This document shows, in pieces, positions 3,322 to 48,125 of a stretch of 64,000 nt of DNA. The notes beneath the pieces are model-generated. The model saw only the letters and a list, made by a program, of their open reading frames with translations, was not told the DNA's origin and did no database searches. The DNA comes from Candidatus Cloacimonadales bacterium. GTDB lineage: Bacteria > Cloacimonadota > Cloacimonadia > Cloacimonadales > JAFGVF01. The first letter of the stretch is position 1. Each line of letters starts with the position of its first letter. The stretch lies in the NCBI GenBank assembly GCA_963677495.2, contig CAXXOU010000003.1:256001-320000 (forward strand), written 5' to 3'. Both the position numbers and the translations under genes were made by a program.

Positions 3322-3340
3322 TTTAAGTGTCTTAATATTT

Positions 3341-3369
3341 AGGGTAGACAATGTCTGCCCTTTTTCTTT
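3341..3369 (+). terminator. Rho-independent terminator
   Basis: AGGGTAGACA-A-TGTCTGCCCT hairpin followed by a T run, just after the 1423-3321 gene. Confidence 0.65.
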
Positions 3370-3389
3370 ACTCAATCATAGGAGTTAAA

Positions 3390-3950: not shown

Positions 3951-4102
3951 GAGAAAGCATTATAAGTAACGACACGTGTATTTATTGCATAATCTCTAGT
4001 TTCAAACTCTTTAGAATCTTAAACTCTTTTTTAACACTAAGAGACTAACTTACAACTGTCTATCATAAGAAGTTAAGTAAATCATTTGCTACACTTCTCG
4101 TT

Positions 4103-4244
4103 CTAGTCCCAGCAGTAATAATTACCGTTATGATAGCGATATCTCAGTAATAACTTACCAATTACTTAGTAATTAGGCCAAGGATTGGCCAAGAATTGGC
4201 CAAGAGTTGCCTAAGGGTTTGCTAAGAATTACTGCTGGGAAATG
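4103..4244. repeat. 142-bp palindromic element with 11-bp periodic (TTGGCCAAG) array
   Basis: Perfect 13-bp inverted repeat TCCCAGCAGTAAT (4107-4119) / ATTACTGCTGGGA (4228-4240). Internal units ATTGGCCAAGA, ATTGGCCAAGA, GTTGCCTAAGG, GTTTGCTAAGA. Inverted homolog at 30829-30970. Confidence 0.85.
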
Positions 4245-4452
4245 AGAGAGAAACAAGGGTCAAGTCATAACAACTACGGATTTAAAGGTTCCCACTATTG
4301 CAAGTTTAAGTGTAAGGAGGGACAAGGAACATCATGATCAGTTCGTAAGCTAAAGGTGAACATCTGTATGCTAAAAAGATATATATATTATAGCTAAGTC
4401 TCATTACTTCGAAATTAAGATGACCGTAATGGTGGTAACTAACAATAATTTC

Positions 4453-4481
4453 TTGACATCAATGCATACATTATATGTAAT
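4453..4481 (+). promoter_or_regulatory. Sigma70-type promoter
   Basis: TTGACA-N17-TGTAAT upstream of the 4524 gene. Confidence 0.55.
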
Positions 4482-4523
4482 TAGATGTTAATTTAAAACT
4501 TATACGAAAAATTGGGAGGAAAA

Positions 4524-6845: not shown

Positions 6846-7009
6846 TATTGGCAGATAAAATAAAAAGCATTTGACAGCATTTTACCGTTTTCGAAATTTA
6901 TGCAGAGGTTAGGAGATTATAGTTAGTTTTGGAATAATGCATAGGGAGATTCAAACCAAATGAATATTATGCATTTAATTAATAATTTCATAAAAATAAG
7001 GAGGATCTA

Positions 7010-30500: not shown

Positions 30501-30744
30501 GTTCAATCCAACTACAACCATTAAATTTGAACTCAATAAGGGTTCAGTAGTTAGTTTAGATATATATAATATTAAAGGACAGAGAATTAGCTCTTTAACT
30601 CAGAAGTATCATATCCCCGGCACACATAATTACACCTGGAATGGTATTGATAACAGCAATAAAGCTGTTCCAAGCGGTATATACTTCTACAAACTAAAAG
30701 CCGGAACATACACCAAAACAAGAAAGATTGTACTAATCAAATAG
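27568..30744 (+). CDS. Multidomain adhesin-like secreted protein D (short paralogue)
   Basis: EVEPNN N-terminus as in B. No MAM domain. Cleaved-adhesin domain and CTD. Start may be ATG 27574. Confidence 0.85.
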   Translation: MTMTFLKGFFVFLFICTAFVLCAVNEVEPNNAYNDFGVQTIIDGDHTGTVNPGELDFWKFWSVSGDFVTISCVNNQTNFDSYLYLYDTSGINQLASNDDANGTVQSEIQYQMTTTGYHYFAMAGFGQSSGNYLVSLSGSSPNDPDMPGDLLNPSPYDGALNLDPSNITLSWDFGANTETYDLYIGTVANPNILVLQDEPAGLTASYTPTNLQLDTLYLWRVVAKNSISQYDNEVTWSFRTQTAANIVQVGDDDNMQTTDLPIVSYGYSSFTQTIYTSDELGDPGLVAAIGYQYSGNMGMTNCEDWTIYIGHTTVNGYTSESSWIPVNTLQEVFSGVVSPTTNEGWVTIDLDNAFFYNGVDNLVVSVYEDTPGSGQAQDRFYKSDSNMTKSMVKVSVSEPMLDPFNLGSADYYQTFFPNTRFTINRDIAGAYVLAFPFEHDWGLVDVGTTTQAETVTITNYGETTATINNPPTLLGDFVDQFTLTDSNVYPIALETLDSITLDVCFNPTSGGYKSTELSLSHDWQGSTEIIVPFQGRGLVYDSNNTPSNATELQLVVEDMLCAIEPAGDIDFYSFFQTAPAEISIFTEANDFSGINPEMYLYGPFNSIPNSVTAEDCIMACDDFNGSLHPRIDMNINDSGFYIVRIASYDNFPDSRTSHIGEYLLTVLSDNIQPPGYLEPPTNITAMNQTDCIQLNWELPLNGNPSGYYVFRDGVRLNNDLITTLSYSDYNVNNNVEYEYYLTAFYNSYYAESIPSDTLAVTFIPGGAGYLSDNFEGYENFLLQFGNWITVDGDGENTLGFTNGVDFASEEQPMAFTVFNQLATTPPISFAPAYSGDKALASFAPQNGARNDWLISEEIALSDTSAFVSFYGRTVFPQYGAEQFKAYVITDYTNPDNPIMDCISGNTSIELPADWCYYGFDLDEYLGQNIRIALLLNTESGFMAMLDDFRVTVEGVATETVEAVQSTSIVKNLSSYPNPFNPTTTIKFELNKGSVVSLDIYNIKGQRISSLTQKYHIPGTHNYTWNGIDNSNKAVPSGIYFYKLKAGTYTKTRKIVLIK

Positions 30745-30970: not shown

Positions 30971-31252
30971 AAAGGAAAGGGAAGTGAAGTATCTATAACA
31001 AACTAGTTTTAGTTAGAGAATACATTTCATGAGACTAGTGGCTCTGTAGGCTAGTGTTAAATCAAACACACTCCTTACTGAGCTCCTACATACTTCTTAT
31101 TTATTCTCCTAATTGCTAGCAACTTAGCTTAACAACAGCATCAAGCTTGATACAGGAAAGATTGTTGTTGGCATGAAATAATTATTATATTGACACAAAA
31201 ACTTACAGTGTTAAATAATGTAGTGTTAATGTAATTAACTATGGAGGTTCTT

Positions 31253-33547
31253 ATGAAAAAGATTGCTTTTGTTTGTCTAATACTACTTCCCATTGCATTA
31301 TTTGCAATTACATTGGAAGTATCATTAGATAATACAACATTTTTCTCTCGCATCCAAAATGCTGTTTCCATTGCAACAAATGGAGACACTATCCTTGTCC
31401 ATCCCGGTGTTTATTACGAAAACATTAGCTTGGAAGGAAAACATGGAATTACACTCGTTTCGTCCGGTGACGAATTTGACACAGTGATAGATGGTTCTAA
31501 TGGTAACCGTGGTTGTATTGGTTTGCTTAGTGGAGAAGAAAACATAATAATTTCAGGTTTTGAAATCCGTAATGGCTCAATTCCAGCAGATTATTCTTTG
31601 CCTTCAGGTGGCATTATGATGTCTGATGCAGATAATATAACCTTACAAAATTTAGTTATTCATCACAACTATAGCACTATAGGTGGTGGGTTATGTATTA
31701 CAGATTCTGAGTTTATAGCTTTATCAAATGTTGTAGTTAGGGATAACACTGCAATCTTAAGAGGTGGTGGAGTTTACCAATCTGACAACACCAATATTCA
31801 ATATGACATGATGAATAGATGCAGTATTTATGATAATTATTCTGTGCTTGGAATGGATATCTACAGTAGAGATGTTTGTAATCTATATCTTGATACATTC
31901 TCATATCCTTACTACGGGGAAAATAATGCTTATGTCCAATATTATAACAACGATGCCAATGGTTTATCAGAAATCTTTATACAGAGCCCATTATATCAAT
32001 ATGTAACATCGTCTCTTTATCTTTCTCCCGATGGTGATGATGCTAACGATGGATTGACCCCTGAGACAGCTTTGCGAACTCCATGGGTTGCCTTTAGCAA
32101 GCTACCAGTACAAGTTAGTTCTAATCGTACAGTGTATTTTGCACCGGGTATATATAACAATACCAGAAATGGCATTGGTGTAGGGTTACATGTACCAGCC
32201 GGATTAACAATTCAAGGAGCAGGAAAAGAGGAGACAGTCATATCAATTGATAATTCCTATTATCGTGGATATGGGATGTATGTAAAACCAGATGCTTATA
32301 GAGTGGAAATTAACGATTTGACAATCAAGCAAACTAATGGTTCAGCACTTTATTGTTCTGGAGCAGAAGAGGTAATAGTGTCAAATGTTAGTTTTGAGGA
32401 CTGCCAGCATGCTTTCTACAGTTTTATTAGTATTGTTGGTGAAGACACACATGTTACATTTGATAACGTGACATTCCAAAACACCGTTAATAACCAGGAT
32501 GGTGGAGAGTTATTATGGATCGTAGGTTCAGAGGTAAGTTTAACTAATTGTCAGTTTAAGAATAATGTGATGGATATAAGCCAAGCCTGGGCTAATTACA
32601 TGATAAATATATCAGACTGTGATAGTGTATTAGTTAAAGACTGTTTGTTCATGAATAACGACACATATTACGAATACGGTGCAATGCAAATCGAAGGTTC
32701 TTCAATTGTTTGGGATAATAACCTATATACGAATAATATAACTCATACTACAGGGAATCTCTATTTCCGGGGAAGTGATGTTTATGTACTCAACTCTACT
32801 TTTTCAATGAACACTAGTTGCACATCAGATCATAACTTTCTTGATCTTATAGGACATAACAAACTAAGAGTTATTAATTGTATATCTGATAATAACACAC
32901 AGATTGATGAAATTGATTGTAGCTCAGATGACTTATTAATCGACTACTGTACATTTACTCGCCAATTTGCCTTATACGGGATTGATCCTGCAGATATAGG
33001 CAACAATGTTTATACACAAGTAGCTTTGGACCTTAATGGTGGTGACCCGGCAGATATGGACTTCTATCTATACAATGTTTCCAATCTAACTGATCCATCT
33101 ATTACAATTGATAATGGAACTACAGACTTATCTTATTTTTATCCGGGTTATATGTTCCCTACCTATGATGCAGTGGGGAACCCAAGAATCTACAATGGAA
33201 CAATAGATATCGGAGCACTTGAATTTTGTCCGGCAATGGAAGAAGACGATAACTCTTTAGCAGTGACCGGGAATCTCTTACAGGGTAACTTCCCCAATCC
33301 CTTCAACCCAACAACCACAATCAAGTTCAGCTTAGCGAAACAAGCCCAAGCTGACATTTCTATATACAATATCAAAGGACAGAGAGTTAGGACACTCACA
33401 GACAGGTCATATCAACAAGGAAAGCATGCTATTATCTGGGATGGAAAAGATGATAAAGGTAATAGCCTTAGTTCAGGGATTTACTTCTATAAGTTAAGGG
33501 TTGATAATCTGGATATATCAACAAGGAGATGCGTTTTGATGAAATAG
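31253..33547 (+). CDS. Secreted parallel beta-helix (DUF1565-like) protein with CTD
   Basis: GGAGG RBS. IQ.AV..A..GDTILVHPG.Y.E, SPDGDD.NDG.TPE.A and IDIGA.E motifs, plus CTD. Paralogue of 45735-48125. Confidence 0.85.
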   Translation: MKKIAFVCLILLPIALFAITLEVSLDNTTFFSRIQNAVSIATNGDTILVHPGVYYENISLEGKHGITLVSSGDEFDTVIDGSNGNRGCIGLLSGEENIIISGFEIRNGSIPADYSLPSGGIMMSDADNITLQNLVIHHNYSTIGGGLCITDSEFIALSNVVVRDNTAILRGGGVYQSDNTNIQYDMMNRCSIYDNYSVLGMDIYSRDVCNLYLDTFSYPYYGENNAYVQYYNNDANGLSEIFIQSPLYQYVTSSLYLSPDGDDANDGLTPETALRTPWVAFSKLPVQVSSNRTVYFAPGIYNNTRNGIGVGLHVPAGLTIQGAGKEETVISIDNSYYRGYGMYVKPDAYRVEINDLTIKQTNGSALYCSGAEEVIVSNVSFEDCQHAFYSFISIVGEDTHVTFDNVTFQNTVNNQDGGELLWIVGSEVSLTNCQFKNNVMDISQAWANYMINISDCDSVLVKDCLFMNNDTYYEYGAMQIEGSSIVWDNNLYTNNITHTTGNLYFRGSDVYVLNSTFSMNTSCTSDHNFLDLIGHNKLRVINCISDNNTQIDEIDCSSDDLLIDYCTFTRQFALYGIDPADIGNNVYTQVALDLNGGDPADMDFYLYNVSNLTDPSITIDNGTTDLSYFYPGYMFPTYDAVGNPRIYNGTIDIGALEFCPAMEEDDNSLAVTGNLLQGNFPNPFNPTTTIKFSLAKQAQADISIYNIKGQRVRTLTDRSYQQGKHAIIWDGKDDKGNSLSSGIYFYKLRVDNLDISTRRCVLMK

Positions 33548-35134: not shown

Positions 35135-35377
35135 AAAAACCTTCCTTTAAGATAAAGCAAACATTTACAATCAAATAGCTAGGTCAAGAAATAAATGTTT
35201 ATTATGACCTACAGGCTGATGGAAATCAAATCACCTATAAATCCATAAATAATTGTAGTTTCATATTTTGCAAGCTTTTTTTTGATTTTTTCCATTTTTT
35301 TAGTGATACCACTATTGCTTGCAATATATAAAGTTAGTAGTTTTCTGCAAAAACAGATGTATACTGCTAATAAATAC

Positions 35378-35408
35378 AAACGCCCTTCCTTTCCCAGGAA
35401 GGGCGTTT
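35378..35408 (-). terminator. Rho-independent terminator
   Basis: AAACGCCCTTCCT-TTCCC-AGGAAGGGCGTTT immediately after the 35415 stop. Confidence 0.75.
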
Positions 35409-35414
35409 AGTTAT

Positions 35415-35876
35415 TTAGTTACCATCGTAACTGTTTGTTAGATCATCATACTTACTGACCTTGGGCAAGAAACCATTATCAATGGCATCCTTAACTGTCT
35501 GAATCCCGATATCCAAGAGCTGGATATCAGCAAAGGTAACAGTCTTCAGGTCAATAGTAGGATCATCTTTGTGAACATTCCACCACATCTTCTGGTACAG
35601 AGCATAGAAGGTAGGTGGAACTGCATATTGATCAACGACATCGGTTTCATATCTCTGACAATAGGTTTTCAAGTCATCAACCCATCCGGAATCGAAACTG
35701 TCGTATACGATTCCAAGGTTTTTAGCAATGAGACCGATTGTCTGGTTCTGAGACGAGTAAGGTGGTGCAGCGTACTCTTTGGCAATGCATACTGCATCAT
35801 CATGCAAAGCCATGTAGGTTGTTTTGTCACGGGATCCGCTCCATGAAAGGAACGGGAAGCACATGTTAACTTTCAT
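35415..35876 (-). CDS. Small hypothetical protein, paralogue of 41242-41694 (possibly DUF6266-like)
   Basis: GGAGG RBS before MKVN. Shares IA..Y..P....N....AKNLG..Y.....G...DL..Y, KM, P..DLKT.T and LP.V with 41242-41694. Confidence 0.8.
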   Translation of the reverse strand: MKVNMCFPFLSWSGSRDKTTYMALHDDAVCIAKEYAAPPYSSQNQTIGLIAKNLGIVYDSFDSGWVDDLKTYCQRYETDVVDQYAVPPTFYALYQKMWWNVHKDDPTIDLKTVTFADIQLLDIGIQTVKDAIDNGFLPKVSKYDDLTNSYDGN

Positions 35877-35914
35877 TTTAGACCTCCTGGTCATTTGTAC
35901 TCATTAAGGCTAAT

Positions 35915-36035
35915 CGTAAAACGACTCTCCGGGTCGTTATTCCCCTCTCACAGAGGGGTGTCGTGTAACGACGGGGTGTTATCTCTTGGGTAGAGACAAC
36001 AAGTTACGTTAAACAACTCTCTAGGTCGTTATCCC
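35915..36035. repeat. REP-like composite palindromic repeat
   Basis: Reverse complement AACACCCCGTCGTTACACGACACCCCTCTGTGAGAGGGGAATAACGACCCGGAGAGTCGTTTTACG matches the repeat at 48162-48277. Confidence 0.8.
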
Positions 36036-36170
36036 CGGTTCCAATTAACCGAAAAAAATCTCTTCCTTAATAAGAGGTTGAAGGATCTGTCAGGAACTAC
36101 CACTGACGATTTACTAACTACATTTCGAGTTTTCAATGCATTGAGTTTCTATAGATTAGATTTAAAAAAA

Positions 36171-36240
36171 CATCTTTCATCATTCATTTTTCATCTTGCA
36201 TTCTTCATTCTTCATCTTGCATTTGTAATTTTGCATTTAT
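36171..36240. repeat. Degenerate 7-bp tandem repeat (TTCATCT/TGCATTC)
   Basis: CATCTTT CATCATT CATTTTT CATCTTG CATTCTT CATTCTT CATCTTG CATTTG. Confidence 0.7.
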
Positions 36241-36382
36241 TTTCTTCTCTCTATAACTATACTGGGGGAAAAATTGTTAGATTTTGTGAAAAGAGTGAAA
36301 ATTATTTATGAAATATATTTATCTTGACATAAGAAGAAATAATTTGGATTAATTTACTAAAATTATTGCTAGATGGGAAAGG

Positions 36383-37621
36383 ATGAATAAATATACATAT
36401 ATAGACTTGTTTGCTGGATGTGGAGGACTATCTTTGGGAATGAACCAATCAGGGTGGAAAGGTTTGTTTGCAGTTGAAAAGAGTCCATATGCATTTCTTA
36501 CTTTGAAAACTAATCTTATGAAGAAGTTAGATCACTTTAATTGGCCTGAATGGTTACCACAAACAGAACAAGATATAAACTCAATGCTTGAGAATCACAA
36601 AGAAGATTTATTAAAACTAAGGGGAAATATTGACTTAGTTGCAGGAGGTCCACCCTGCCAAGGATTCTCAACAGCAGGAAGAAGAATTGAAAGTGATAAT
36701 AGAAATCAGCTTATTGATTCTTACATAAGTTTCATCAGACTAGTTCAACCAAAATTAATTTTCTTTGAAAATGTAAGGGGATTTACTCAACGATTTAAAA
36801 AAAATAAATCGAATGGATTTAGATATTCAGAATATGTGAAAAAGGCATTAGAAAAGGATGGGACTGATTTTTCTGGTTATAAAGTTTATGGTGAATTGGT
36901 AGATTTCTCTGATTTTGGTGTACCCCAAAAGAGGACTAGATTTATACTAATTGGGATAAGAAAAGATTTCTCTAATGTACTTAATCCTGAGAACTTCTTT
37001 AACATTATTACAAAGAATAGAGAGTTTTTTTTCGCACAAAAATTGATTAACAAATCTACTTCAGTAAAAGATGCTATTTCAGACCTATACAAATCGAAGG
37101 TTAGGGTTGAATGTCCAGATTCGAAAAGTTTCGAAACAACCTGCTATACAAAAGAGGTTTCTCTATATCAAAAGTACTTGCGCAAAGATTATAAAAAGAG
37201 AATTCCAGATAGTCATAGGTTTACTAAACATGGGAAACAAACAATTTCTCTCTTTGAAAAATTGATAGAAAATGTACCCAAGGGTAGACGAATAAATCAA
37301 GAAATGAAAGAAAAGTTTGGGCTAAAGAAGCGAGGTTTAATTGTGCTTGACCCTAACAAACCCGCTCCGACAATTACTTCGCATCCAGATGACTATTTAC
37401 ATTATGGAACTCCAAGAATTCTAACAGTCAGAGAATGTGCAAGAATTCAGTCATTTCCTGATTGGTTTGAATTTAAAGCTAAATACACAACTGGGGGGAA
37501 ACAAAGGAAGCATGAAGTACCTAGATACACTCAAGTAGGAAATGCTATCCCTCCTCTTTTCAGTGAGCAAGCAGGAAATGCTCTAAAGGAAATGTTAGAT
37601 TATGAGCAAACAAACATTTAA
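36383..37621 (+). CDS. dcm: DNA (cytosine-5)-methyltransferase
   Basis: Motifs DLFAGCGG (I), GGPPCQGFS (IV), FENV (VI), Q.R.R (VIII), R.LTVRE.ARIQSF (IX), GNAIPP (X). Confidence 0.95.
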   Translation: MNKYTYIDLFAGCGGLSLGMNQSGWKGLFAVEKSPYAFLTLKTNLMKKLDHFNWPEWLPQTEQDINSMLENHKEDLLKLRGNIDLVAGGPPCQGFSTAGRRIESDNRNQLIDSYISFIRLVQPKLIFFENVRGFTQRFKKNKSNGFRYSEYVKKALEKDGTDFSGYKVYGELVDFSDFGVPQKRTRFILIGIRKDFSNVLNPENFFNIITKNREFFFAQKLINKSTSVKDAISDLYKSKVRVECPDSKSFETTCYTKEVSLYQKYLRKDYKKRIPDSHRFTKHGKQTISLFEKLIENVPKGRRINQEMKEKFGLKKRGLIVLDPNKPAPTITSHPDDYLHYGTPRILTVRECARIQSFPDWFEFKAKYTTGGKQRKHEVPRYTQVGNAIPPLFSEQAGNALKEMLDYEQTNI

Positions 37622-39932
37622 AATTAGTGCCGCACTTAAGGATCTAATAGGTCGAGAACTCATTACTGATGAGTTTGTTGCTGTTTTCGAGTTAGTTAAG
37701 AACTCTTATGATGCAAATGCTAAACTTGTAAAAATTGTTTTTGAGAACAATAGAGATAGTCAGAATACTAGATTACTTATTATCGATGATGGTAAAGGTA
37801 TGAATTTTATAGAACTTAAGAACAAATGGCTTTTCGTTGCATATTCTGCAAAAAAACTAGGGAAAGAGAATGAAGATTATCGTGATAAATTAGATTTTCA
37901 TCGATCCTTTGCAGGTGCAAAGGGTGTCGGAAGATTCTCATGTGATAGATTAGGAAAACATTTACGTTTGATTACAAAAAAGGATGAAAAGAAATCTAAA
38001 CTGGAAGAATTAATTGTAGATTGGGTAGATTTCGAGGGTGTAGATGATAAACAGTTTGCCAATATTGAAGTCAAACATTCAACTCTTTTAAATAATGAGT
38101 ATGAATTAGAACATGGTACTGTTCTTGAAATTTCTGGATTAAGAGATAATTGGAATAGAGATAGAATATTAAAACTAAAGAAATCATTGGTTAAACTTAT
38201 CAATCCTGAAAAAGACAATAGCAGTGATCAATTTGAAATATCTATTATCGCTAAAGATGAGTTAAAGAAAGATAAGGAAATACAGAGTAACATCCTAAAT
38301 AAGAAGAATCATTTTAGTAACATTGTCAATGGTTTCATCAAGAATATTGTGTTTGAAGCATTAGAGATAAAAACAACTAATGTATTAGTTCAAATCTCAC
38401 CTTGTGGTGAGTATATTGAAACAACTCTCCAAGATAGAGGAGATATCATATTTCACCTTAAGGAAGTAAATCCTTATACTGAATTAAGAAATATCAATGT
38501 TTACCTTTTCCAATTGAATAGAAGTGCTAAACTCACTTTTACAAGGCTTATGGGAATCCCATCAGTAGAGTATGGATCTGTTTTTGTGTACAAGAATGGT
38601 TTTAGAATCTATCCATATGGAGAAGTTGGGGAAGATCTTCTGCTTATTGATAGAAGAAAACAACAGGGTTATAATAGGTATTTAGGCACGAGAGACCTTA
38701 TCGGTCGTATAGAAATAATAGGTGAGCAACCAAATCTAAGGGAAACTACGAGTAGAGATGGAGGTTTATTTAAAACTAATGCCTATAATCAACTAGTAGT
38801 ATTTTTCAGGACTAAAGTTTTAGCTCGACTTGAGAACTATGTAGTGAATATTATCAAATGGGGCGACGAAAGAATCGAAAAAGATCAAAACGGCTATATA
38901 ATAAGTAAAAACCCTGAATTGTGGCCTGTAGATGTAAAGATTGATATTTTAGAGATGATAACAGGATTCATCAAATCAAAAGATGTTATTGATATAAGTT
39001 ATGATGATAATTTCTTAAACATAATCGAAAACAAAAAAACTAATAGTATCGATAAAAGCATTAGAAGAATTGAGTCAATCGCAAATAAATCAAAGAATAG
39101 AGAAGTTATAAAAGAAGCACGTAAAATTAAAAAAGCATTCGAAAGTGTTATTAATGACCAAAAAAAAGCCATTGATAAAGCAGATAATGCAGAAAAAGAG
39201 CTTCTCAAAAGCAAACGAGAACTGGAATATATTACAAGTCAGAATATCTTTTTAACTAATAATATTAGTGACAATTCAATTAGTCTACAAAGTATTCTTC
39301 ATCATATAGGGTTAACAACAAACTGGTTAAGATTAGATATAAAAAAACTTATAAAAGCTGTAGATGAAGATAAAGGTAAAGGGGAAATATTAAGAATTGT
39401 TAAGCGAATGAGCTATCAAAATGAAAAGATTACCTCATTTTCAAAGTATTTCAAAAAGATAAATTATGATTATCATTCCAAAAAGATGAAAGCAGATTTA
39501 ATCATATTTATTAATGAGTATATCGAAAATGTTTATAAACTTAGAGAGGATTTAGACAATAATAGAGAGTTGATTAATGTTTCAGTTCATAATCCTCATT
39601 TTCTTAAATTAGAGATGATTGTTAATCCTATAGATATTATCATTGTTATTGATAATTTAATAAGTAACTCTCAAAAGAATGATGCGAAACAAGTAGATGT
39701 TAAATGGAGGAAAAACAGCAATAATAATATTGAAATGTCTGTAAAAGATGATGGAATTGGTATTCAAGATAAGTTACTAAAAAGAATATTTGATTTTGGT
39801 TTCACAACTACTAGAGGTTCAGGCATTGGTCTGTACCATGTAAGAGATCTGTTATCCAAGATGAAGGCAGATATTTCAGTATGTAACGAGCATGAAAAGG
39901 GTGTTGAATTTATAATTGAATTTCGGAGGTAA
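37602..39932 (+). CDS. MORC/GHKL ATPase fused to a C-terminal histidine kinase (paraMORC-type)
   Basis: N-terminal GHKL motifs ELVKNSYDA, DDGKGM, GAKGVGRF and HGT. S5-like V.VYKNGFRIYPYG. Coiled coil. C-terminal H-box (ILHHI), DNLISNS, KDDGIGI, IFDFGFTT, GSGIGL. Overlaps dcm by 20 bp. Confidence 0.9.
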   Translation: MSKQTFKISAALKDLIGRELITDEFVAVFELVKNSYDANAKLVKIVFENNRDSQNTRLLIIDDGKGMNFIELKNKWLFVAYSAKKLGKENEDYRDKLDFHRSFAGAKGVGRFSCDRLGKHLRLITKKDEKKSKLEELIVDWVDFEGVDDKQFANIEVKHSTLLNNEYELEHGTVLEISGLRDNWNRDRILKLKKSLVKLINPEKDNSSDQFEISIIAKDELKKDKEIQSNILNKKNHFSNIVNGFIKNIVFEALEIKTTNVLVQISPCGEYIETTLQDRGDIIFHLKEVNPYTELRNINVYLFQLNRSAKLTFTRLMGIPSVEYGSVFVYKNGFRIYPYGEVGEDLLLIDRRKQQGYNRYLGTRDLIGRIEIIGEQPNLRETTSRDGGLFKTNAYNQLVVFFRTKVLARLENYVVNIIKWGDERIEKDQNGYIISKNPELWPVDVKIDILEMITGFIKSKDVIDISYDDNFLNIIENKKTNSIDKSIRRIESIANKSKNREVIKEARKIKKAFESVINDQKKAIDKADNAEKELLKSKRELEYITSQNIFLTNNISDNSISLQSILHHIGLTTNWLRLDIKKLIKAVDEDKGKGEILRIVKRMSYQNEKITSFSKYFKKINYDYHSKKMKADLIIFINEYIENVYKLREDLDNNRELINVSVHNPHFLKLEMIVNPIDIIIVIDNLISNSQKNDAKQVDVKWRKNSNNNIEMSVKDDGIGIQDKLLKRIFDFGFTTTRGSGIGLYHVRDLLSKMKADISVCNEHEKGVEFIIEFRR

Positions 39933-39933
39933 T

Positions 39934-40869
39934 ATGCATTTATTTTACAACATTTTGTGGATTGATAACGATATCGAAGACTATATTGAGAGAGATGAAT
40001 TAGATGACATAGAAAAATTTCTTAAAAATCTTGGATTTATTCCACACATCAAGACTGACAATGGTGATAGTGAAATTAACGATCTGTTAGGAATTACAAA
40101 TTATGATTTAATTCTCTCTGATTTCAATTTAAACGAGAAAAAAGGAGATAGTATAGTTAAAGCGATAAGAGAAATGGGAATTCTCACCGAAATCATTTTT
40201 TATTCTGCTAACACTGATTTTAAAAATGATCCTAATATTTTATCTAGCAAAGTTCTTTTTGATAGAGTAAGTTTTCACTATGGTAGAACTACTTTAATGG
40301 AAAAGATTGAAGAGATAATCAAATTAACATTAAGAAAACTACTTGAACTAAATGCAACTCGAGGGCTAATAACATCTGCTACTAGTAGCTTAGATGTAGA
40401 TATTGAGAGTTTTGTGAGGTGCTTGGTTAATAATCATGTAGAACTAACTCAAGAACAGGTCGATAAAATTGTCAACGGTTACATAACTGATTGTTTAGAT
40501 AGAAAATCGGATAAGTTCAGAACTAAATATGAGAAGTTAGGTTTCTTAGATGTATTCTCTTCAATTGAAGCCTATAGAAAATGGAAGATTTTACGAGAAA
40601 TATTGAAACTAAAGCAGGGTGTAGCATACAGCGATGAAGTTGCCGATTTTTTAAAAATCAATAAGAAATATTATGAAGAAGTAATATTTATTAGAAATAG
40701 ATTTGCGCATTCAAAAGAAGTATGTATTGCAGGGGAAAAATGTTTGCAAGGTCAGATTGAAGGAGATCATTTCCAATTTAATGAAGAAACCTGTGTAGAT
40801 ATTCGTAAAAAATTAATAAAGCACATTGAGAGTTTTAATAATCTTAAAAAATATCTAAGCATAGATTGA
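39934..40869 (+). CDS. Response-regulator receiver domain fused to putative HEPN domain
   Basis: Receiver motifs ILWIDND, YDLILSDFNL (phospho-acceptor Asp) and IIFYSA. Helical C-terminus with RNRFAH (RxxxxH). GGAGGT RBS; starts 1 bp after the kinase stop. Confidence 0.8.
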   Translation: MHLFYNILWIDNDIEDYIERDELDDIEKFLKNLGFIPHIKTDNGDSEINDLLGITNYDLILSDFNLNEKKGDSIVKAIREMGILTEIIFYSANTDFKNDPNILSSKVLFDRVSFHYGRTTLMEKIEEIIKLTLRKLLELNATRGLITSATSSLDVDIESFVRCLVNNHVELTQEQVDKIVNGYITDCLDRKSDKFRTKYEKLGFLDVFSSIEAYRKWKILREILKLKQGVAYSDEVADFLKINKKYYEEVIFIRNRFAHSKEVCIAGEKCLQGQIEGDHFQFNEETCVDIRKKLIKHIESFNNLKKYLSID

Positions 40870-40883
40870 TAGGAATTTCAGAT

Positions 40884-40972
40884 ACTCCCTTGTATTATAC
40901 TCCCCTCTCCCTAGCCCTTCCCTTGCGTGGCAAGGGAGACCCAAGAGTAACCCAAGGGAAAGGCAAGGGATG
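40884..40972. repeat. Head-to-head 11-bp CCCTTG/CAAGGG array
   Basis: CTCCCTAGCCC, TTCCCTTGCGT, then GGCAAGGGAGA, CCCAAGAGTAA, CCCAAGGGAAA, GGCAAGGGATG. Confidence 0.75.
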
Positions 40973-41241
40973 ATTATCCATTTTCATGACATTTCTATAA
41001 GTGCTTTTTAGCTGACGAAATAATAGAGGAGCCAAGAGAATAATGCAGGTTTAGCAGGTTTTTATTTACTCTAAAATTGATTTAAACATTATCATTCAGG
41101 TAAAACAACTCAAATTTTCACAAATTCAGGTCATTTTTCACCCAGTATAGTTATAGAGGAAGGTTTATTAGCTAACAGTTAAGAGCCTATAGTCTATAAT
41201 TAAAATTGAAATCCCTATTTTTGGGGGATATGGAGGAAACA

Positions 41242-41694
41242 ATGAAAGTTAATTTAGATTTGATTGGAAAAGCATTGATTGGAAGGATTGGGAAGCTTGT
41301 CTTTTATCGATTCAAGAAATCAAATGTGCTTATTGCACGAGCTTATAAGAAACCCCGTTTGACTCAGAACAACTTCGATTTGCGCACTAAAGCAAAAAAT
41401 CTCGGCGTATTCTATCACAATGTATCAGATGGTTACAAACGAGACTTACGAAACTATGCGACCAACCTGAACAATGAAACAATCGGTGATAGCTGTATCT
41501 ACAATATGTACAATGTGTTTATTAAGATGATGTATGGATTGAAACGAATTTATCCTGAAGTGGATTTGAAAACTATTACACCCGAGATTGTTATTGAAGA
41601 AGGCTATCCGGTTGATACGATCTCGCATGCTGTGGATGCGTGTACATTACCTGAAGTAAAGTTTTCAAATGAGTTTACTAATCCGATAATATGA
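41242..41694 (+). CDS. Small hypothetical protein, paralogue of 35415-35876 (possibly DUF6266-like)
   Basis: GGAGG RBS before MKVN...GRIGKLVFY...IARAY. Motifs shared with 35415-35876. Confidence 0.85.
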   Translation: MKVNLDLIGKALIGRIGKLVFYRFKKSNVLIARAYKKPRLTQNNFDLRTKAKNLGVFYHNVSDGYKRDLRNYATNLNNETIGDSCIYNMYNVFIKMMYGLKRIYPEVDLKTITPEIVIEEGYPVDTISHAVDACTLPEVKFSNEFTNPII

Positions 41695-41695
41695 A

Positions 41696-41724
41696 CTCCT
41701 CCCCTTCTTTCAAAGAGGAGGAGA
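41696..41724. terminator. Hairpin between convergent genes
   Basis: CTCCTCCCCTT-CTTTC-AAAGAGGAGGAG. Confidence 0.55.
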
Positions 41725-41730
41725 TTTGTG

Positions 41731-42318
41731 TTAGTCGTATTCTTTGATTATAAGTTCGTTTTCTTTATCCAAATTGGGTTTATAAGACAATCGCGAGTTT
41801 AGAATCAAAGTGGTTTCCAAGTATTGATTAAAGATGGGTGATTCGCTTTTGAATTGTTTCATTGCATACCTAATCCCATCTAGTACACTTCTGCAACTTG
41901 GATTAATGAAGCTTTGGGGTTGATTGTAGCTGTCATCATTTATCATTTTCTCAATTCTTTTGAGCTTGTCATGATAATATTTTGTTTGAACCGGATCACT
42001 GCGTTCGATAGCAGCTCTCCATTCATCATAACATCTCTTATAATCAGCTACAAGATTAATTAATCTGTTTGTGCTATTTCTAGGTTCAGACTCTTGAAAT
42101 CCTGTACCCGAAAACAGAATGTCTAAATCTTTGTTTGGTATTGACTTTTTGTTGGGGAAGTAATTTAGTACATAATACAAGCATGACGCATATATTGATT
42201 GATATGGATGAAAAAGTAACTCGATTATATACATGATACCCATTGTTATTTTGATGATGCTTACATGATCAGTTATGATCTTAACATATCCATCGTGTAT
42301 GCTAATTGTAATCAACAT
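41731..42318 (-). CDS. Hypothetical protein (possible regulator-associated helical domain)
   Basis: GGAGGA RBS before ATG 42318. G..YI..LL.HP...I and R.V...IRYA......P....L......SY.P pattern. Confidence 0.65.
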   Translation of the reverse strand: MLITISIHDGYVKIITDHVSIIKITMGIMYIIELLFHPYQSIYASCLYYVLNYFPNKKSIPNKDLDILFSGTGFQESEPRNSTNRLINLVADYKRCYDEWRAAIERSDPVQTKYYHDKLKRIEKMINDDSYNQPQSFINPSCRSVLDGIRYAMKQFKSESPIFNQYLETTLILNSRLSYKPNLDKENELIIKEYD

Positions 42319-43054
42319 AATATCCTCCAAGACGAATCAAAGGGTTTCTAGTCTTGGTAAACGGTATTGTTATCGTTTGCCCTTGATTACGATGTTAACC
42401 ATTCCCCACGGGATGGGGAGACCTTTTACGTAAAGATGTCCTAAGTAGTAGGACTAAGGTCAGAGCAAGAATTCATAGAACCTCCATTATTAGTGCAAGT
42501 CCATTTTTATTCACATTAGAATTATGTCAAGCATAGATATTAATAATATTATTTAAATGATAGATAGTTAATATTGTGTAACTATTGCAGGCAATAATTG
42601 TTGATAACACCAACTGAATTAGATTCAATATTAATACTTCTTAAATATACGTGAAACAAACGTATACTTTGTCAACAATTCCTATTGCATAATACTAACA
42701 ATGTTAACAGTATAATTGTGTAAAATTATTCAAATGAAACTAAATCTTAATTGATTATAAGCGGAGATTGCTTGCCTTGTGAAAATATTATATATGTTTG
42801 GAATTTCTTTTGCATATTAAATTTGCATAGGAATTCTAAAAGGAGGTAACTATGAGATTCCATAATAACTTCACTTAACTGCAAGAAATATAGTACTTTG
42901 TAGGGATTACAGACATGTTAACAGTAGAACTAAATAATAATTACATAAACTTGAAACATCGTAGTTTAATTATTACTTAATTTTATAAGTAATAGGCATT
43001 CTAAAAATAGATAGCAGATATGCTGTCACAAATTCATATTATTAGGGAATAATA

Positions 43055-45572
43055 ATGAAAAACATTAAGAGATTACTTGTACTCACTATGCTGCTCTCAC
43101 TAAGCGTTCTCTGCTTTGGTACTGATTATTATGTAGATGTAAACAATGGAAGTAACGGGAACTCCGGTTTAATTGGATATCCTGTTGCATCTATCAATTA
43201 TGCACTTGACAACTTGGTATCTAACGGAGATGTTATATATGTTGCCAACGGTGAATATACAGAGAATGTATCACTAAACAATACAAATGATATTTATAAC
43301 ATATCGATTATTGGTAATACTAATGACCCAAGTCAATGTGCTCTTGAACCAACTACGGGATATGGATTCTATATAGTTAACTCAGATCATGCCTTGAATG
43401 TAAAAATTGAAGGTTTCACTGTAAACACAGTATCATGCCCAATATATTATTCAGGTAGCTACTCAAACGCCACTTATGAATATCTAACAATTAAATCATG
43501 TAATTTCAGTTCATCTAATCGCATTCTTGCATCGTCCAATGGTAACTTCTTAGTATATTCAATGTACTATTGTGACTTTGATTATGATGGTACACAGCTT
43601 GATGCGCTGATGATTAGTGCTAATTCAGTAAATATTACCATAGACGACTGCGATATAGACTCTGAGTATGGTATTATGTATTGCCCTGAGCGAGCAGATG
43701 TACTGTCAGGATCAAGTGTAAAAATTACAAATAGCACATTTGCATGGCAGAGAAAAATCTCGGCATTTGAACTTCGTACAGATTCAAATTCTAAAAACAC
43801 TTGTGTTTACGGGTAACATTATTACCGAATCCAATCATACAGCTGCAAATGATTTGATGATATTTGAACTAGAGCATAACATTCATTCTACTAAGTTCTC
43901 AAACAATACATTTGATAAGAATAGCACACGCTCAGTTGACATTTTCAGAAAAGATGGGAATGCTACTGTAATATTATCAAGCTTCTATAATAACATACTG
44001 AATGAAATAGATGATATGGCTACATCAGGTGTTGTTGGATGGGGCACAATGTCAAACGGAAGAGATTGTATTCCAATTCATAACTGTATTAGCTCAAGCT
44101 TAGATACGGTTCTAGATGGCTATACAAGCCTTCCTGATTATGATACAGATGATTACAAGAACCTGATACAATCTCCATATTATGTAACTGGAAGTTACGC
44201 TCTCGATTGGACAACTGAGGGTCCTGAACTTATTGGAGCAGGTTACGACCCGGATATGGATAATACTAGTCAAAATGATATCAACCAGGCTCTAAGAGAC
44301 CAATTTGATGAAACAGCTGATATTGGTGCTGTTGCCTATGATGATGATAGGTTTGTAACTTATAGTTTCGCTGCCGTACCAACAATCAACTGGAAATCAT
44401 TCCCAATTCTTGATAAAACTACAGAGATGGCAATCAATGGAACTGACTATGCAATGAATGTTCCCGGAGCATTTTTCGATGAATTTACTGGATTGAACTC
44501 TGACATGGTTTGGGCTGAGTTTCAGGATGAAGGTACTTCAGGTTATACATCAGTATTTCATTATCCTAACACTCCATTGTTAACATATCATATTGATAAT
44601 GAGTATGGTAGTAAACTGAAATTTGACAACGTAGCATCAATGGATGCACATGGAATCACAATTGAAGAGGATCATGTGATTGATGTACCATTTGGTGATG
44701 AAGCAACTTGGGTTGGTTACTTCCTTGAAGATGATCAATTACCTACTGATGCCTTTGGTGAATATATGGATGAAGTGTATTATATTCAAGCTCATAACTG
44801 GACAATGGCTAGACAATTCCCTGTAAGGGGTTCTGCTTGGTCAAATGGAAGAGTTTCAGAAATCAAATATGGAGATATGGTCATTATCAAAAGATTTGAT
44901 GATGTTCAAGCGATTGATAGTTATGCATGGGATCCCGCTACATCTAAGTCAAATACTCCTGACACAGAAATACCTGAGCCTGTACATTTCCAATTTGTAG
45001 AGGAAGCAAACTACTACCCAATCTTTGTTGAAACAGGTGTCGATACTGAGCTTCAAGAGATAGCTGTTTATGTAAATGGAGAATGCCGTGGAGCAGGAGT
45101 TGTTTATAGCGAAGGTTCAACAATGGTTCCATTGTACTATGATAATAGTGAATCAATTGATGAAAACACTCAATTCAACCTTATCGGATGGGCAGGAGAT
45201 GCCAAGTCAAATGTAGAGATTGAACAGATGTTTGGTGAACAACATGGATATTCATTCTATTCAATGGTAGAAGAAGCTGATTCTCCTGAAGTATCAGGAA
45301 GATATACAATATCTAATTACCCTAATCCATTCAATCCAACAACAATCATTAGCTTCTCAATTCCTAAAGATGAGAATGTGGAGATATCCGTGTTTAACAT
45401 CAAGGGACAGAAAGTTAAGACAGTTGTAAACGATAACTATACAACCGGAAGTCATAAGGTAGTATGGGATGGTACAGATGAAAATAATAAGTCAGTAACA
45501 TCAGGCATCTACTTCTACAAACTAAAAACATCATCAAAAACATTGACTAACAAAATGATCTTGATGAAATAA
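43055..45572 (+). pseudogene. Frameshifted secreted beta-helix protein with CTD
   Basis: ORF 43055-43816 has the signal peptide and YYVD..NG..G.G N-terminus. ORF 43740-45572 has the CTD but no signal peptide. Removing one A in AAAAA (43793-43797) joins them as ...DSNSKTLVFTGN... Confidence 0.8.
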
Positions 45573-45734: not shown

Positions 45735-48125
45735 ATGAAACAGATATTATTTTTACTATGTTTACTACCACTTACCCTTATTGCTTCCATTATTAATATA
45801 CCGGCAGACTATATCACAATCCAAGAGGGTATTGATGTCGCAGTTGAAGGTGATTCTGTGCTTGTGCATCCCGGGACTTATCTGGAAAACTTAGATATGA
45901 GTAACAAATCAGGAATAACTCTTTGCTCTTTAGAAGCCACGACAGGAGATACTACTTACATTAGTACAACTATAATAGATGGAAGTTTGAATGAAACATC
46001 TACAATTCTCTGCTATGAGAATGTAGAAGAGTGCGTTATTAGAGGAATATCAATAACAGGGGGTAAGGGATATATCTATCATAGCAATGATGATACTAAT
46101 GATTGGCAAGTATTTGGTGGGGGAATCCTCATTTTCGAAAATTGTGAGATTAGTTTAATCAATTTAAAGATTTTTGATAATAGAGCATCCCAAGGTGGTG
46201 GTATATGTTTCGGTTATGAAGATGTTTTATGTACAATGTCTAATGTAAACATTTTTAACAATATTGGAAGATTCTTGGGAGGAGGGGTGTGCTTCTCAAG
46301 CTCAAACTCTGAGCATTCTGAAGTGACATTTGACCAGATTAACAGATGCAGTATATACAACAACTATAGCCCACAAGGAATGGATATTGGTTGGAGCTTT
46401 AATAGAGGATTTTCAATTGATATATACTTGGATATGTTTACCTGGTATGAGCCAAATAGATATTTTGTAAACAACTACGATTATTATTATCTCGAGATAG
46501 ATGATATATATCCTGTTTTTGATTTCCAGCAAAGCTATCTTACACCAACGGACACCGATTATTATGTTTCAATGACCGGAGATGATAACAATACAGGACT
46601 AACTCCTGATGATCCTTTTAGAACAACCTGGAAAGCGTTTCAACAACTAGAACCTTCACCCGATAATCCTCGTACTGTTCATCTGCTTGAGGGAGATTTT
46701 CATGAGATGATAAACGGGCATCCTGTATCTATTGTACTCAAAGATAATACAAGATTGCAGGGAGTTTCACCTGAGGAAACAAGAGTTCTGGCAGAGAATA
46801 TGGTTGATACTCCGGTATCTGGTGCAATCTCTATGGGAAACTATCAAGACAATATGATTGTAAAAGACCTAAGCATAACTGCAATCAACACCCCTGCAAT
46901 GGGTTCTTACACACTGTACAACTCAACTGTTGAGAATATTGAAGTATATGATTGCGATATAGAGTTTGGAGTATTCAAGTTTAATAGTCATACTACAGAC
47001 TTACTAATCAAAGATGTAATATTCCATGACAACACTGCAAGGTGGGGTATAATTCTATATACTTATATGAGAAGTATATCACTTGATAATGTTCTAATGT
47101 ATGATAATATTGCAGGTACAGATGTCAGTGATCAAACAACATCTGAATGCGGTATGTATGACTTATATGCAATTCAATCTATTACTATCAAAAACTCTAC
47201 ATTTATAAATAATTATCACTATACTGATGATGTTGGTTGGGCGACATTTAGACACTTAAGAATCAATAGCTCACCCACATTACTTATAGAGAATTCGTTA
47301 TATGCAAACAATATAACTGCGGGGAACGCAAAAACTTTTAAGGTATCTGATGATTTTAGTGAAGTAGTAATAGCAAATAATACTTTTGCAAACAATGAAG
47401 GAGTGTATACTTGTTTTATGTCTGTGAGAAGTCAATTAGACTGCTATAACAACATATTCGCTAACAACACAGGTTATTGGTATCAAATTGCTTCACAAGG
47501 TGGTTCTAATATTGATAACTGCCTATTCACTGAAACTGAGGATATCCAATCAGTATTGGAAGGAAATCCAAACAACTTTGGAAGCAACAACTTGATAGGT
47601 ACAGATCCATTATTTGTTGGTGGAGATCCAGCCTTCCCGGAATACTACTACCTATCGGGAGATGATACAAACTCGGGACCTTCACCTGCGATTGATGCCG
47701 GGACAACTGATTTAACTCTGTTCCCTACAAATTATTCATTCCCTGACAGAGACCTTGCTAACCAGAGAAGAATCTATGGAGATGATATCGATATAGGTTG
47801 TTATGAGTTCCCCGGATTTACACACGACACAGATGACACACCAAGCTATACATCCTATAGCTTATCGAACTACCCTAACCCATTTAATCCAACTACAACG
47901 ATAAACTATAGTATCCCCAGAAGAAGGAATATCGAGTTAGCAGTATTCAACGTGAAAGGTCAACGAATCAAGACTCTCATTAACGATGTAATGCCATCCG
48001 GTGAACATAGTGTTATCTGGGATGGTGATAATGATAATGGAGTTAAAGTAGCTTCAGGGATATATTTCTATAAACTACAGGCAGGGACTTATACAAAGAC
48101 CAAGAAGATGATATTGATGAAATAA
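45735..48125 (+). CDS. Secreted parallel beta-helix (DUF1565-like) protein with CTD
   Basis: IPADY.TIQEGID....GDSVLVHPGTY.EN, GDD.N.GLTPDDPF.T, SPAIDAG and IDIGCYE motifs, plus CTD. Confidence 0.85.
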   Translation: MKQILFLLCLLPLTLIASIINIPADYITIQEGIDVAVEGDSVLVHPGTYLENLDMSNKSGITLCSLEATTGDTTYISTTIIDGSLNETSTILCYENVEECVIRGISITGGKGYIYHSNDDTNDWQVFGGGILIFENCEISLINLKIFDNRASQGGGICFGYEDVLCTMSNVNIFNNIGRFLGGGVCFSSSNSEHSEVTFDQINRCSIYNNYSPQGMDIGWSFNRGFSIDIYLDMFTWYEPNRYFVNNYDYYYLEIDDIYPVFDFQQSYLTPTDTDYYVSMTGDDNNTGLTPDDPFRTTWKAFQQLEPSPDNPRTVHLLEGDFHEMINGHPVSIVLKDNTRLQGVSPEETRVLAENMVDTPVSGAISMGNYQDNMIVKDLSITAINTPAMGSYTLYNSTVENIEVYDCDIEFGVFKFNSHTTDLLIKDVIFHDNTARWGIILYTYMRSISLDNVLMYDNIAGTDVSDQTTSECGMYDLYAIQSITIKNSTFINNYHYTDDVGWATFRHLRINSSPTLLIENSLYANNITAGNAKTFKVSDDFSEVVIANNTFANNEGVYTCFMSVRSQLDCYNNIFANNTGYWYQIASQGGSNIDNCLFTETEDIQSVLEGNPNNFGSNNLIGTDPLFVGGDPAFPEYYYLSGDDTNSGPSPAIDAGTTDLTLFPTNYSFPDRDLANQRRIYGDDIDIGCYEFPGFTHDTDDTPSYTSYSLSNYPNPFNPTTTINYSIPRRRNIELAVFNVKGQRIKTLINDVMPSGEHSVIWDGDNDNGVKVASGIYFYKLQAGTYTKTKKMILMK

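Follow-up and report, generated by a model that had tools for sequence, protein, structure and literature searches.

What does a DNA cytosine methylase do when the two genes behind it encode a histidine kinase and a receiver protein, and no restriction endonuclease gene accompanies them? This question is raised by a three-gene cassette of about 4.5 kb in a 64,000-nucleotide stretch of the genome of a Candidatus Cloacimonadales bacterium (GenBank assembly GCA_963677495.2, contig CAXXOU010000003.1, positions 256,001 to 320,000 of the forward strand), the whole of which is called the window below and supplies the coordinates. The three genes always stand together and are coupled in translation, and the same gene order in about 100 other loci puts the arrangement far beyond chance. 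The cassette may be a phage defence or addiction module resembling a restriction-modification (R-M) system in which restriction has been replaced by a phosphorelay to a predicted RNase, a reading to which we give an even chance. By analogy with published systems, this REC-HEPN-like cassette is a variant of a class that was described computationally in 2021 and, in a related form, shown to block phages in 2025, and its mechanism is one that we infer. The defence role, the sensor input and the RNase output proposed here for the family are drawn from domains, motifs, linkage and mobility.

The three genes and their predicted products

Three plus-strand open reading frames (ORFs) were listed at window positions 36383-40869 (Table 1). 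The end of gene 1 runs 20 bp into gene 2, and the third frame, listed as 39916-40869, most likely begins at its ATG at 39934, six codons in, as judged from the sequence, which leaves a gap of 1 bp behind gene 2. Between 36 and 41 kb the GC content drops to 0.27-0.34, whereas most of the window stands at about 0.36-0.40. A first-pass annotation, made from the letters of the same DNA, had described three coupled AT-rich genes with this overlap and gap, two GHKL domains and the H, N, G1, F and G2 boxes of a histidine kinase in gene 2, a receiver with its phospho-acceptor Asp in gene 3, and no endonuclease or Vsr gene nearby. The ORF coordinates and GC content agree with the first of these points, and the Pfam domains and the recurring gene order with the three-gene architecture as a whole; the others are borne out by the profile matches, alignments, structural model and neighbourhood searches given below, with the H-box assigned by its position and conservation.

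Gene 1 is, by its profile matches and motifs, an intact Dcm-type C5 methyltransferase. It matched PF00145 (E 7.6e-56), the TIGR00675 dcm family (E 1.1e-45) and the MTase_II model of PADLOC (E 2.8e-80), and the catalytic motifs FAGCGG, GGPPCQGFS (with Cys92), ENV, QKRxR and GNAIPP are all intact. The target-recognition region could be aligned across 57 sequences, a soft hint that the methylases of the family share one specificity. A second C5 DNA methyltransferase gene lies elsewhere in the same genome (G000:C1:610036-610968, PF00145 E 1.1e-89).

Gene 2 is predicted to encode a soluble kinase, the input end of which consists of a MutL/MORC-type GHKL ATPase and a conserved middle domain. In Pfam, the protein matched HATPase_c_3 (PF13589) at its N-terminus and HATPase_c (PF02518) at its C-terminus, which accounts for the two GHKL domains. 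The N-terminal GHKL residues E30, N34, D37, D62, G64, G66, G105, K107, G108 and G110 were invariant in 24/24 homologues, and the ATP-binding motifs (E30, N34, D37, D62xGxG and GAKGVG) are intact, in line with the ATP-binding criterion for MORC and paraMORC proteins. Searches of PDB sequences returned PMS1 (E 2.6e-5) and MutL (E 6.8e-4) for this domain, and ZraS (E 2.7e-12) and SrrB (E 8.2e-12) for the CA domain. Residues 17-215 also matched the NCBIfam profile for the N-terminus of BbrUII/HgiDII restriction enzymes (NF050001, E 2.4e-20) over profile positions 14-198 only, and gene 2 was rejected as a restriction enzyme of that family, since the score was 72.6 bits against a cut-off of 550 on a model of 659 positions.

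The boxes of the CA domain were likewise invariant in 24/24 homologues, namely D684, N685 and N689 (N), D716, G718 and G720 (G1), F730, F732 and F734 (F) and G739, G741 and G743 (G2). The same holds for H567 and H568, which stand 117-121 residues ahead of the N box and are the predicted phospho-accepting H-box; this assignment was made by position and conservation alone because HisKA-type and HEF_HK profiles gave no match. Between the two GHKL domains lies a middle domain of 330 residues with many invariant Arg, Lys and Gly residues and the motifs YKNGFRxYPYGE, RKQQGxNR and ETTSRDGG, for which neither Pfam nor the PDB returned a family and the ESM Atlas returned unnamed clusters only. A hidden Markov model built from it recovered the same domain in the divergent metagenome loci described below, and it may combine an S5/transducer with a nucleic-acid-binding input domain. 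Searches with the input half of the kinase yield 6,422 or more clusters of proteins at 90% identity among the 7,998 candidates listed.

The N-terminal half of the gene 3 product is, on its sequence and modelled fold, a receiver (REC) domain, non-canonical at the beta5 position. In a full-length AlphaFold2 model with a mean predicted local-distance difference test (pLDDT) of 82.8, residues 3-135 superposed on receiver domains, best on PorX (Z 13.2, root-mean-square deviation (rmsd) 2.3, 117 residues aligned); the model is least confident around residues 106-118 (window 40249-40287), where pLDDT is about 60. The acceptor D63 is conserved together with D11, D13 and S91. The PF00072 match of the window copy, at 23.7 bits, stays under the cut-off of 30.2, and the same family was matched in 30/30 close relatives (best E 1.4e-8) and in 102/120 diverse relatives.

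The output half of gene 3 was examined at greater length, as it bears the RNRFAH motif that the first-pass annotation had read as the Rx4H signature of a HEPN RNase. R254, N255, F257 and H259 were invariant in 30/30 relatives; R254 and H259 were also kept in 120/120 diverse relatives at 21-45% identity to the window protein, which argues for an active site, and N255 and A258 in at least 90% of them. In the first helix of the domain, R143 and G144 do not vary. A separate AlphaFold2 model of residues 132-311 (pLDDT 82.9) shows a long first helix, a poorly conserved helical insert, the motif and a long last helix, with a three-stranded beta-meander after the motif. In this predicted model, RNRFAH closes helix 115-127 of the domain, which is the penultimate core helix, and this position was counted for the HEPN reading since HEPN domains are defined by it in section 7 of PMC3710099.

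The C-terminal model was then compared with 48,161 representative chains (VIA). HEPN proteins made up 13 of the top 50 structural neighbours, with Z from 7.7 to 5.3, and comprised Roquin (two entries), HEPN-MNT toxins, AbiF, 1wwp, YutE, AF_0298, Csm6, sacsin, Swt1 and AbiA; Roquin, SO_3166 and AbiA among the neighbours are taken by us to be HEPN proteins. Examples are Roquin at Z 7.7 (rmsd 2.8, 105 aligned), the toxin 7ae2 at Z 7.2 (4.3, 107) and AbiF 8vz6 at Z 7.1 (5.2, 146). The other HEPN labels came partly from entry titles and partly from PMC3710099. When the top 1000 Foldseek results were re-examined, HEPN toxins appeared at Z 7.0 and 6.7, with designed bundles and gp41 helices at equal Z, which added nothing to the case.

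Sequence profiles point the same way below threshold. Families of the HEPN clan alone recurred among the Pfam matches of the output domain, where they cover the motif region, with HEPN_Swt1 in 17/26 proteins (best E 8.6e-4), RiboL-PSP in 8/26 and Apea in 4/26, all sub-threshold; among the 120 diverse relatives such matches were sporadic. The PDB sequence search with the output-domain profile gave best E-values of 1.7 and 6 only, the ESM Atlas search unnamed clusters only, and a Pfam scan of the window copy and its relatives no wHTH or other DNA-binding family. HEPN RNases such as AbiF/Abi2, HEPN-MNT toxins, Csm6 and Swt1-like proteins, as set out in PMC3710099, have features that recur in gene 3, namely an Rx4H motif whose Arg is followed by Asn and which closes the penultimate core helix, the helical bundle, the poorly conserved insert between helices 2 and 3 and an R-M-associated context; gene 3 differs in its lack of a significant HEPN sequence match and in its beta-meander. 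On balance, HEPN membership of the output domain is probable and not established: the conservation of RxxxxH, the lack of which would by the first-pass annotation have refuted its proposal, the position of the motif and the HEPN-rich neighbours favour the earlier reading, whereas the sub-threshold profiles and the empty Foldseek search leave it short of proof. The output-domain profile found 516 clusters (at 50% identity) at E <= 0.001, and in nearly all of the best 150 clusters the protein has 300-330 aa and carries the domain at the same position. Elsewhere in the same genome, unlinked to the cassette, lies a gene for a bona fide RiboL-PSP-type HEPN protein (G000:C4:866029-866583, L038, E 1.1e-15).

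Linkage, neighbours and mobility

A scan of one genome per species yielded 26 loci; methylase, kinase and receiver genes followed one another in the same order in 22 of these, and as the other four were cut by contig ends, the order held in 22/22 assessable loci. A further 80 loci were taken from metagenomes with a divergent 14-sequence subgroup, at 22-37% identity to the subgroup query except for its own locus at 100%. The kinase gene abuts the receiver gene in 73 of these 80, six could not be judged, and one has a gap of 840 bp. Of the 56 metagenome loci in which the kinase gene was whole, 48 had a Dcm-type methylase gene immediately upstream of it and six had one at another place in the locus; of the remaining two, one has an AAA_14 gene in place of the methylase and one had no room on the contig. 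In all 56 complete co-directional triads the distance from kinase to receiver is between -23 and +6 bp, and the divergence of the two proteins is correlated (r 0.84).

Homologues do not routinely carry a separate restriction endonuclease, which the first-pass annotation had named as something that would refute its reading: none was conserved in the 106 related loci, where HNH_2 was found in 4 and Metallophos in 5. The extra genes that recur in these loci encode an HhH-GPD glycosylase (10), Vsr (7), a calcineurin-like phosphoesterase (5) and an HNH_2 nuclease (4). Around the window's own cassette, the flanking ORFs matched no Pfam family, and thus no endonuclease, Vsr, HNH or HTH family, and Vsr had no match in the whole genome (99.46% complete). 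Membership in a classical type II R-M system was rejected, as the window has no cognate endonuclease and the 106 related loci conserve none. One might still suppose that the locus is a truncated type II R-M locus without its endonuclease, brought by chance next to an unrelated two-component pair; the N-terminus of gene 2 does resemble restriction enzymes of the BbrUII/HgiDII family, and four loci have the HNH_2 gene after the receiver. Yet the same triad recurs without an endonuclease in every assessable genome locus and in 54/56 of the whole-kinase metagenome loci, and the BbrUII similarity is far under its cut-off and covers the GHKL domain only, which makes this explanation scarcely credible.

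In five loci (L083, L086, L096, L101 and L103) the Metallophos gene overlaps the stop of the receiver gene by 3-10 bp, and this coupled gene could be an accessory nuclease or a relay phosphatase.

By its distribution, the trio is a horizontally acquired, mobile cassette. The receiver gene is absent from 11/11 other genomes of the same family, three of them of the same genus, and the sole full-length match in a sample of 232 genomes of the phylum was the window's own genome. The flanks 35414-36143 and 41232-42485 match a complete genome of the same genus (G113), in which the slot, bounded by conserved genes of 159 and 162 aa, holds 4.7 kb of other DNA (G113:C1:2264500-2274500, L033, locus 2734-6746) with a DUF3800 gene, ORFs of 164 and 496 aa and a gene for an NA37-like nucleoid-associated protein. 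Different genes in the same slot of a same-genus genome suggest a variable cargo hotspot. Carriers in the one-genome-per-species scan belong to Bacteroidota, Acidobacteriota, Ignavibacteria, Leptospirales and a Limnohabitans, and the neighbours in other genomes include GmrSD, type I and EcoRII R-M systems, SIR2-TPR, NACHT, a PD-(D/E)XK gene, Panacea and Fic. A scan of viral contigs gave 66 pattern matches, none of which encodes a relative. Four sequencing runs of one study contain the DNA, and no RNA run is listed among those that do.

Such a distribution bears on the thought that the cassette serves DNA repair or epigenetic housekeeping, a MutL-like ATPase monitoring T:G mismatches or the methylation state and the relay tuning a cellular response. 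The likeness of the gene 2 N-terminal domain to MutL and PMS1, and a Vsr or HhH-GPD glycosylase gene in 17/106 loci, are what one would cite for it. These repair genes are, however, expected wherever the methylase is active, as mismatch-repair genes are beside any C5 methylase, and the window's genome has no Vsr; moreover, a cassette that is accessory, missing from the 11 other genomes of its family and from nearly the whole phylum sample, and spread across phyla, is hardly a housekeeping locus. We therefore consider this a very unlikely account.

Described relatives and the proposed relay

In 2021, Bellieny-Rabelo, Pretorius and Moleleki (PMC8011034) described proteins with HATPase_c_3, HEF_HK and HATPase_c domains that are paired with Response_reg_2 proteins downstream of C5 methylases, and proposed a two-component-like system tied to R-M; the available text of their paper assigns no output domain. 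The two arrangements are alike, as far as that text goes, in the succession of a C5 methylase, a soluble protein with an N-terminal HATPase_c_3, a DHp-like His region and a C-terminal HATPase_c, and a receiver-like protein, as well as in their paraMORC affinity, their R-M context and the fact that they are known from computation. Gene 2 was nonetheless rejected as a HEF_HK protein (PF19191; no match at E <= 1), and the six-frame search of the genome for HEF_HK at E <= 10 led to nothing but an unrelated place on a different contig. Gene 3 was rejected as a Response_reg_2 protein (PF19192), which had no match in the genome at E <= 10 and did not appear among the 25 families listed, of 38 in all, for 30 relatives. 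True Response_reg_2 receivers are 536-541 aa long and have C-termini without similarity to gene 3 (311 aa), and hhalign against one of them gave a probability of 0.7%; the HEF_HK kinases of Bacteroidetes have about 970 aa as against 776 here, and their H-box reads HE where it is HH here. Of six named organisms with the present family, four do not figure in the supplementary tables of PMC8011034, so far as these are available. Since neither profile matched and the protein sizes and C-termini differ, the present cassette is, in terms of sequence, a sibling of the HEF_HK/Response_reg_2 family that follows the same logic. One weak HEF_HK match (E 0.065) lies at G000:C2:194511-194684 (L027) in an open frame of 1837 aa, which is probably an ordinary large hybrid kinase.

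An experimental relative is Ambrosia of P. aeruginosa (bioRxiv 10.1101/2025.09.30.679545), which, according to the available text of the preprint, consists of an XRE regulator, an N6-adenine methylase, a HATPase kinase, a REC-wHTH protein and a type IV HNH endonuclease and blocks phages, every gene and the receiver Asp being required. Like the cassette, it unites a methyltransferase with a HATPase sensor kinase and a receiver protein in one operon; it has five genes, however, where there are three here, among them a C5 methylase and a receiver with an HEPN-like output, and the cassette lacks both the XRE and the nuclease gene. Membership in Ambrosia was rejected on the C5 methylase, the non-wHTH output and the flanking ORFs without HNH or HTH, a separation made on gene content. 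By analogy, Ambrosia validates the broader methylase-kinase-receiver class, with parts that differ from those of the present cassette.

In Detocs, a two-component relay was described as an abortive-infection defence with the effector fused to a receiver (bioRxiv 10.1101/2023.01.24.525353). There, as proposed here, a kinase phosphorylates a receiver fused to a cell-stopping effector and not to a DNA-binding domain, whereas the TPR-input kinase, the stand-alone buffer receiver, the PNP ATP-nucleosidase effector and the lack of a methylase, all as given in the available text, are differences. Detocs membership was rejected, genes 2 and 3 having no TPR or PNP family and no PADLOC match. A second, tandem receiver/HEPN-like gene, which recalls the Detocs buffer receiver, is present in three related loci (L071, L072 and L081, at about 6990-7965); only L081 has it at full length, the other two having it broken into two ORFs. 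The paraMORC/BbrUII/HgiDII enzymes resemble gene 2 in the N-terminal GHKL ATPase with intact ATP-binding motifs beside a cytosine methylase, but they carry or partner nucleases or helicases, whereas the C-terminus of gene 2 is a histidine-kinase core; the available text of Iyer, Abhiman and Aravind 2008 (PMC2292703) names no kinase or receiver partner, and "histidine kinase" occurs there only in the expansion of GHKL. In the main text of Anantharaman et al. 2013 (PMC3710099), as available, "receiver" has a single, unrelated mention and no fused-receiver control is described. MADS, an eight-gene system with OLD-type ATPase-nuclease modules, was rejected as a match. A figure legend for DefensePredictor names a predicted, unvalidated system with HATPase and REC domains, which may or may not be the present family. 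The first-pass annotation had stated that no experimental characterisation of such a system was known. This stands for the REC-HEPN-like variant, on which literature searches found no experiment, and needs qualifying for the class, which was described in 2021 and in which the related Ambrosia has been shown to block phages.

How might the three proteins work together? In line with the first-pass annotation, the methylase would mark host DNA. The ATPase and middle module of the kinase would bind DNA and report DNA that is unmodified or foreign, or the loss of methylation, and ATP-dependent clamping would then cause the kinase to autophosphorylate at H567/H568 and hand the phosphate on to D63 of the receiver. 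Dimerisation driven by the receiver would join two Rx4H motifs into an active HEPN RNase, and this RNase would halt growth, either in the infected cell or in one that had lost the cassette. The signs of a conflict system that are cited for this relay are the absence of the genes in relatives, the variable slot, the low GC content, the spread across phyla, the defence-gene neighbours, and the Vsr or HhH-GPD glycosylase genes in 17/106 loci, which an active methylase would lead one to expect. Ambrosia, whose defence needs the receiver Asp, and Detocs are precedents.

A number of observations weigh against it. Neither the Pfam scan nor the six-frame HEF_HK search placed a HisKA-type/DHp or HEF_HK profile over H567-H568; the canonical Lys after beta5 of the receiver is absent, a conserved Arg (R118) standing there across the family; and PADLOC has no model for genes 2 and 3. 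For the output domain, the HEPN neighbours reach no higher Z (<=7.7) than designed helical bundles, Foldseek with the C-terminal model found no match at E <= 0.001 in the PDB or BFVD, the window's own C-terminal domain has no Pfam match of any kind, and hhalign against a RiboL-PSP alignment of 10 genomic HEPN matches gave a probability of 2.3%, though the two motifs were aligned. The methylase is much more conserved than its partners (median pairwise identity 55%, as against 37% in the kinase and 29% in the receiver), and its alignable recognition region is unlike the diversifying specificities of classical R-M systems. Lastly, methylation by Ambrosia did not protect phage, according to the available text of the preprint, so that the logic of self-marking may not apply here.

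The last point leads to an account modelled on Ambrosia, for which the preprint's authors propose transcriptional control. The kinase would sense a cue unrelated to methylation, and the receiver protein would be a regulator or RNA binder that changes the expression of the methylase or another gene, and not an RNase that stops the cell. The pairing of a methylase with a HATPase kinase and a receiver in Ambrosia, and an HEPN fold for which the evidence is moderate, leave room for such a role, the more so as PMC3710099, in its available text, counts some HEPN domains as non-catalytic RNA binders. We nevertheless think it unlikely, given an output domain with no wHTH or other DNA-binding family, a catalytic-type R and H that are invariant in 120/120 relatives, and the lack of a conserved nuclease gene for such a regulator to control.

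The relay may instead, or in addition, serve the cassette itself, as addiction and defence roles are not mutually exclusive. In a selfish addiction module the methylase would silence the sensor; upon loss of the cassette, methylation would be diluted, the kinase would fire and the effector would kill the cell. The strict linkage and tight coupling of the three genes would suit such a module, as would the insertion of a bare three-gene unit in a variable slot and the failure of the viral contig scan to find phage-borne copies, and a highly conserved methylase fits a fixed internal signal and not an arms race over specificity. Against this, the kinase and effector proteins would need to outlast the methylation mark after the genes were gone, and the defence-island neighbours elsewhere, together with the Ambrosia and Detocs precedents, point to anti-phage use. 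As a purely selfish element the cassette seems to us improbable, to about the same degree as the regulator modelled on Ambrosia.

A broader proposal, made tentatively and in our view somewhat doubtful, is that the phosphorelay cassette represents a very widespread "restriction-less R-M" in which a MutL/MORC-type ATPase reads methylation and His-to-Asp transfer controls a HEPN RNase that is switched by Asp phosphorylation of the fused receiver. HEPN RNases are known to be gated by antitoxins, cyclic oligoadenylates and guide RNAs, and receiver phosphorylation would, if the proposal is true, be a fourth way. It would also show how a histidine kinase can take its sensory input from a MutL/MORC-type ATPase, account for many "orphan" methylases of the Dcm type in Bacteroidota and other phyla, and provide a new read-out of self and non-self in which the epigenetic state of DNA is coupled to abortive infection at the RNA level. 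The family is large and has neither a functional name nor a PADLOC model, and with a small cassette and clear predicted catalytic residues the hypothesis is directly testable.

Coordinates and surroundings of the cassette

Table 1. Positions in the window of the three genes, their predicted domains and motifs, and the limits of the insertion.
Feature	Position	Strand	Basis
Gene 1, Dcm-type DNA cytosine-5 methyltransferase, 412 aa	36383..37621	+	PF00145, TIGR00675, PADLOC MTase_II
Gene 2, soluble GHKL ATPase-histidine kinase fusion, 776 aa	37602..39932	+	Pfam, NCBIfam, PDB, alignment
Gene 2 residues 26-161, MutL/MORC/Hsp90-type GHKL ATPase domain	37677..38084	+	PF13589, E 1.5e-28
Gene 2 residues ~216-545, strongly conserved middle domain	38247..39236	+	invariant alignment columns
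Gene 2 H567-H568, predicted phospho-accepting H-box (ESILHHIGLTT)	39300..39305	+	position and conservation
Gene 2 residues 676-775, histidine-kinase CA domain with N, G1, F and G2 boxes	39627..39926	+	PF02518, E 1.8e-21
Gene 3, receiver protein with HEPN-like C-terminal domain, 311 aa	39934..40869	+	
Gene 3 residues 1-133, REC domain	39934..40332	+	acceptor D63 at nt 40120-40122
Gene 3 residues 134-311, helical C-terminal domain, probable HEPN RNase (from model)	40333..40866	+	
RNRFAH, R254-H259, Rx4H motif	40693..40710	+	invariant R254 and H259
Outer limits of the inserted cassette	36144..41231	.	flanks conserved in same-genus genome

Outside these limits, strong GC-rich hairpins are found at 35377-35409 (13-14 pairs) and 41696-41723 (12 pairs); both resemble bidirectional terminators and stand at the ends of conserved flanking genes. 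Farther out, the cassette is surrounded by four genes for large secreted proteins that combine FlgD_ig with C-terminal sorting domains of type IX secretion, a feature taken to place the genome in Bacteroidota; these genes lie at 27568-30744, 31241-33547, 43740-45572 and 45735-48125.

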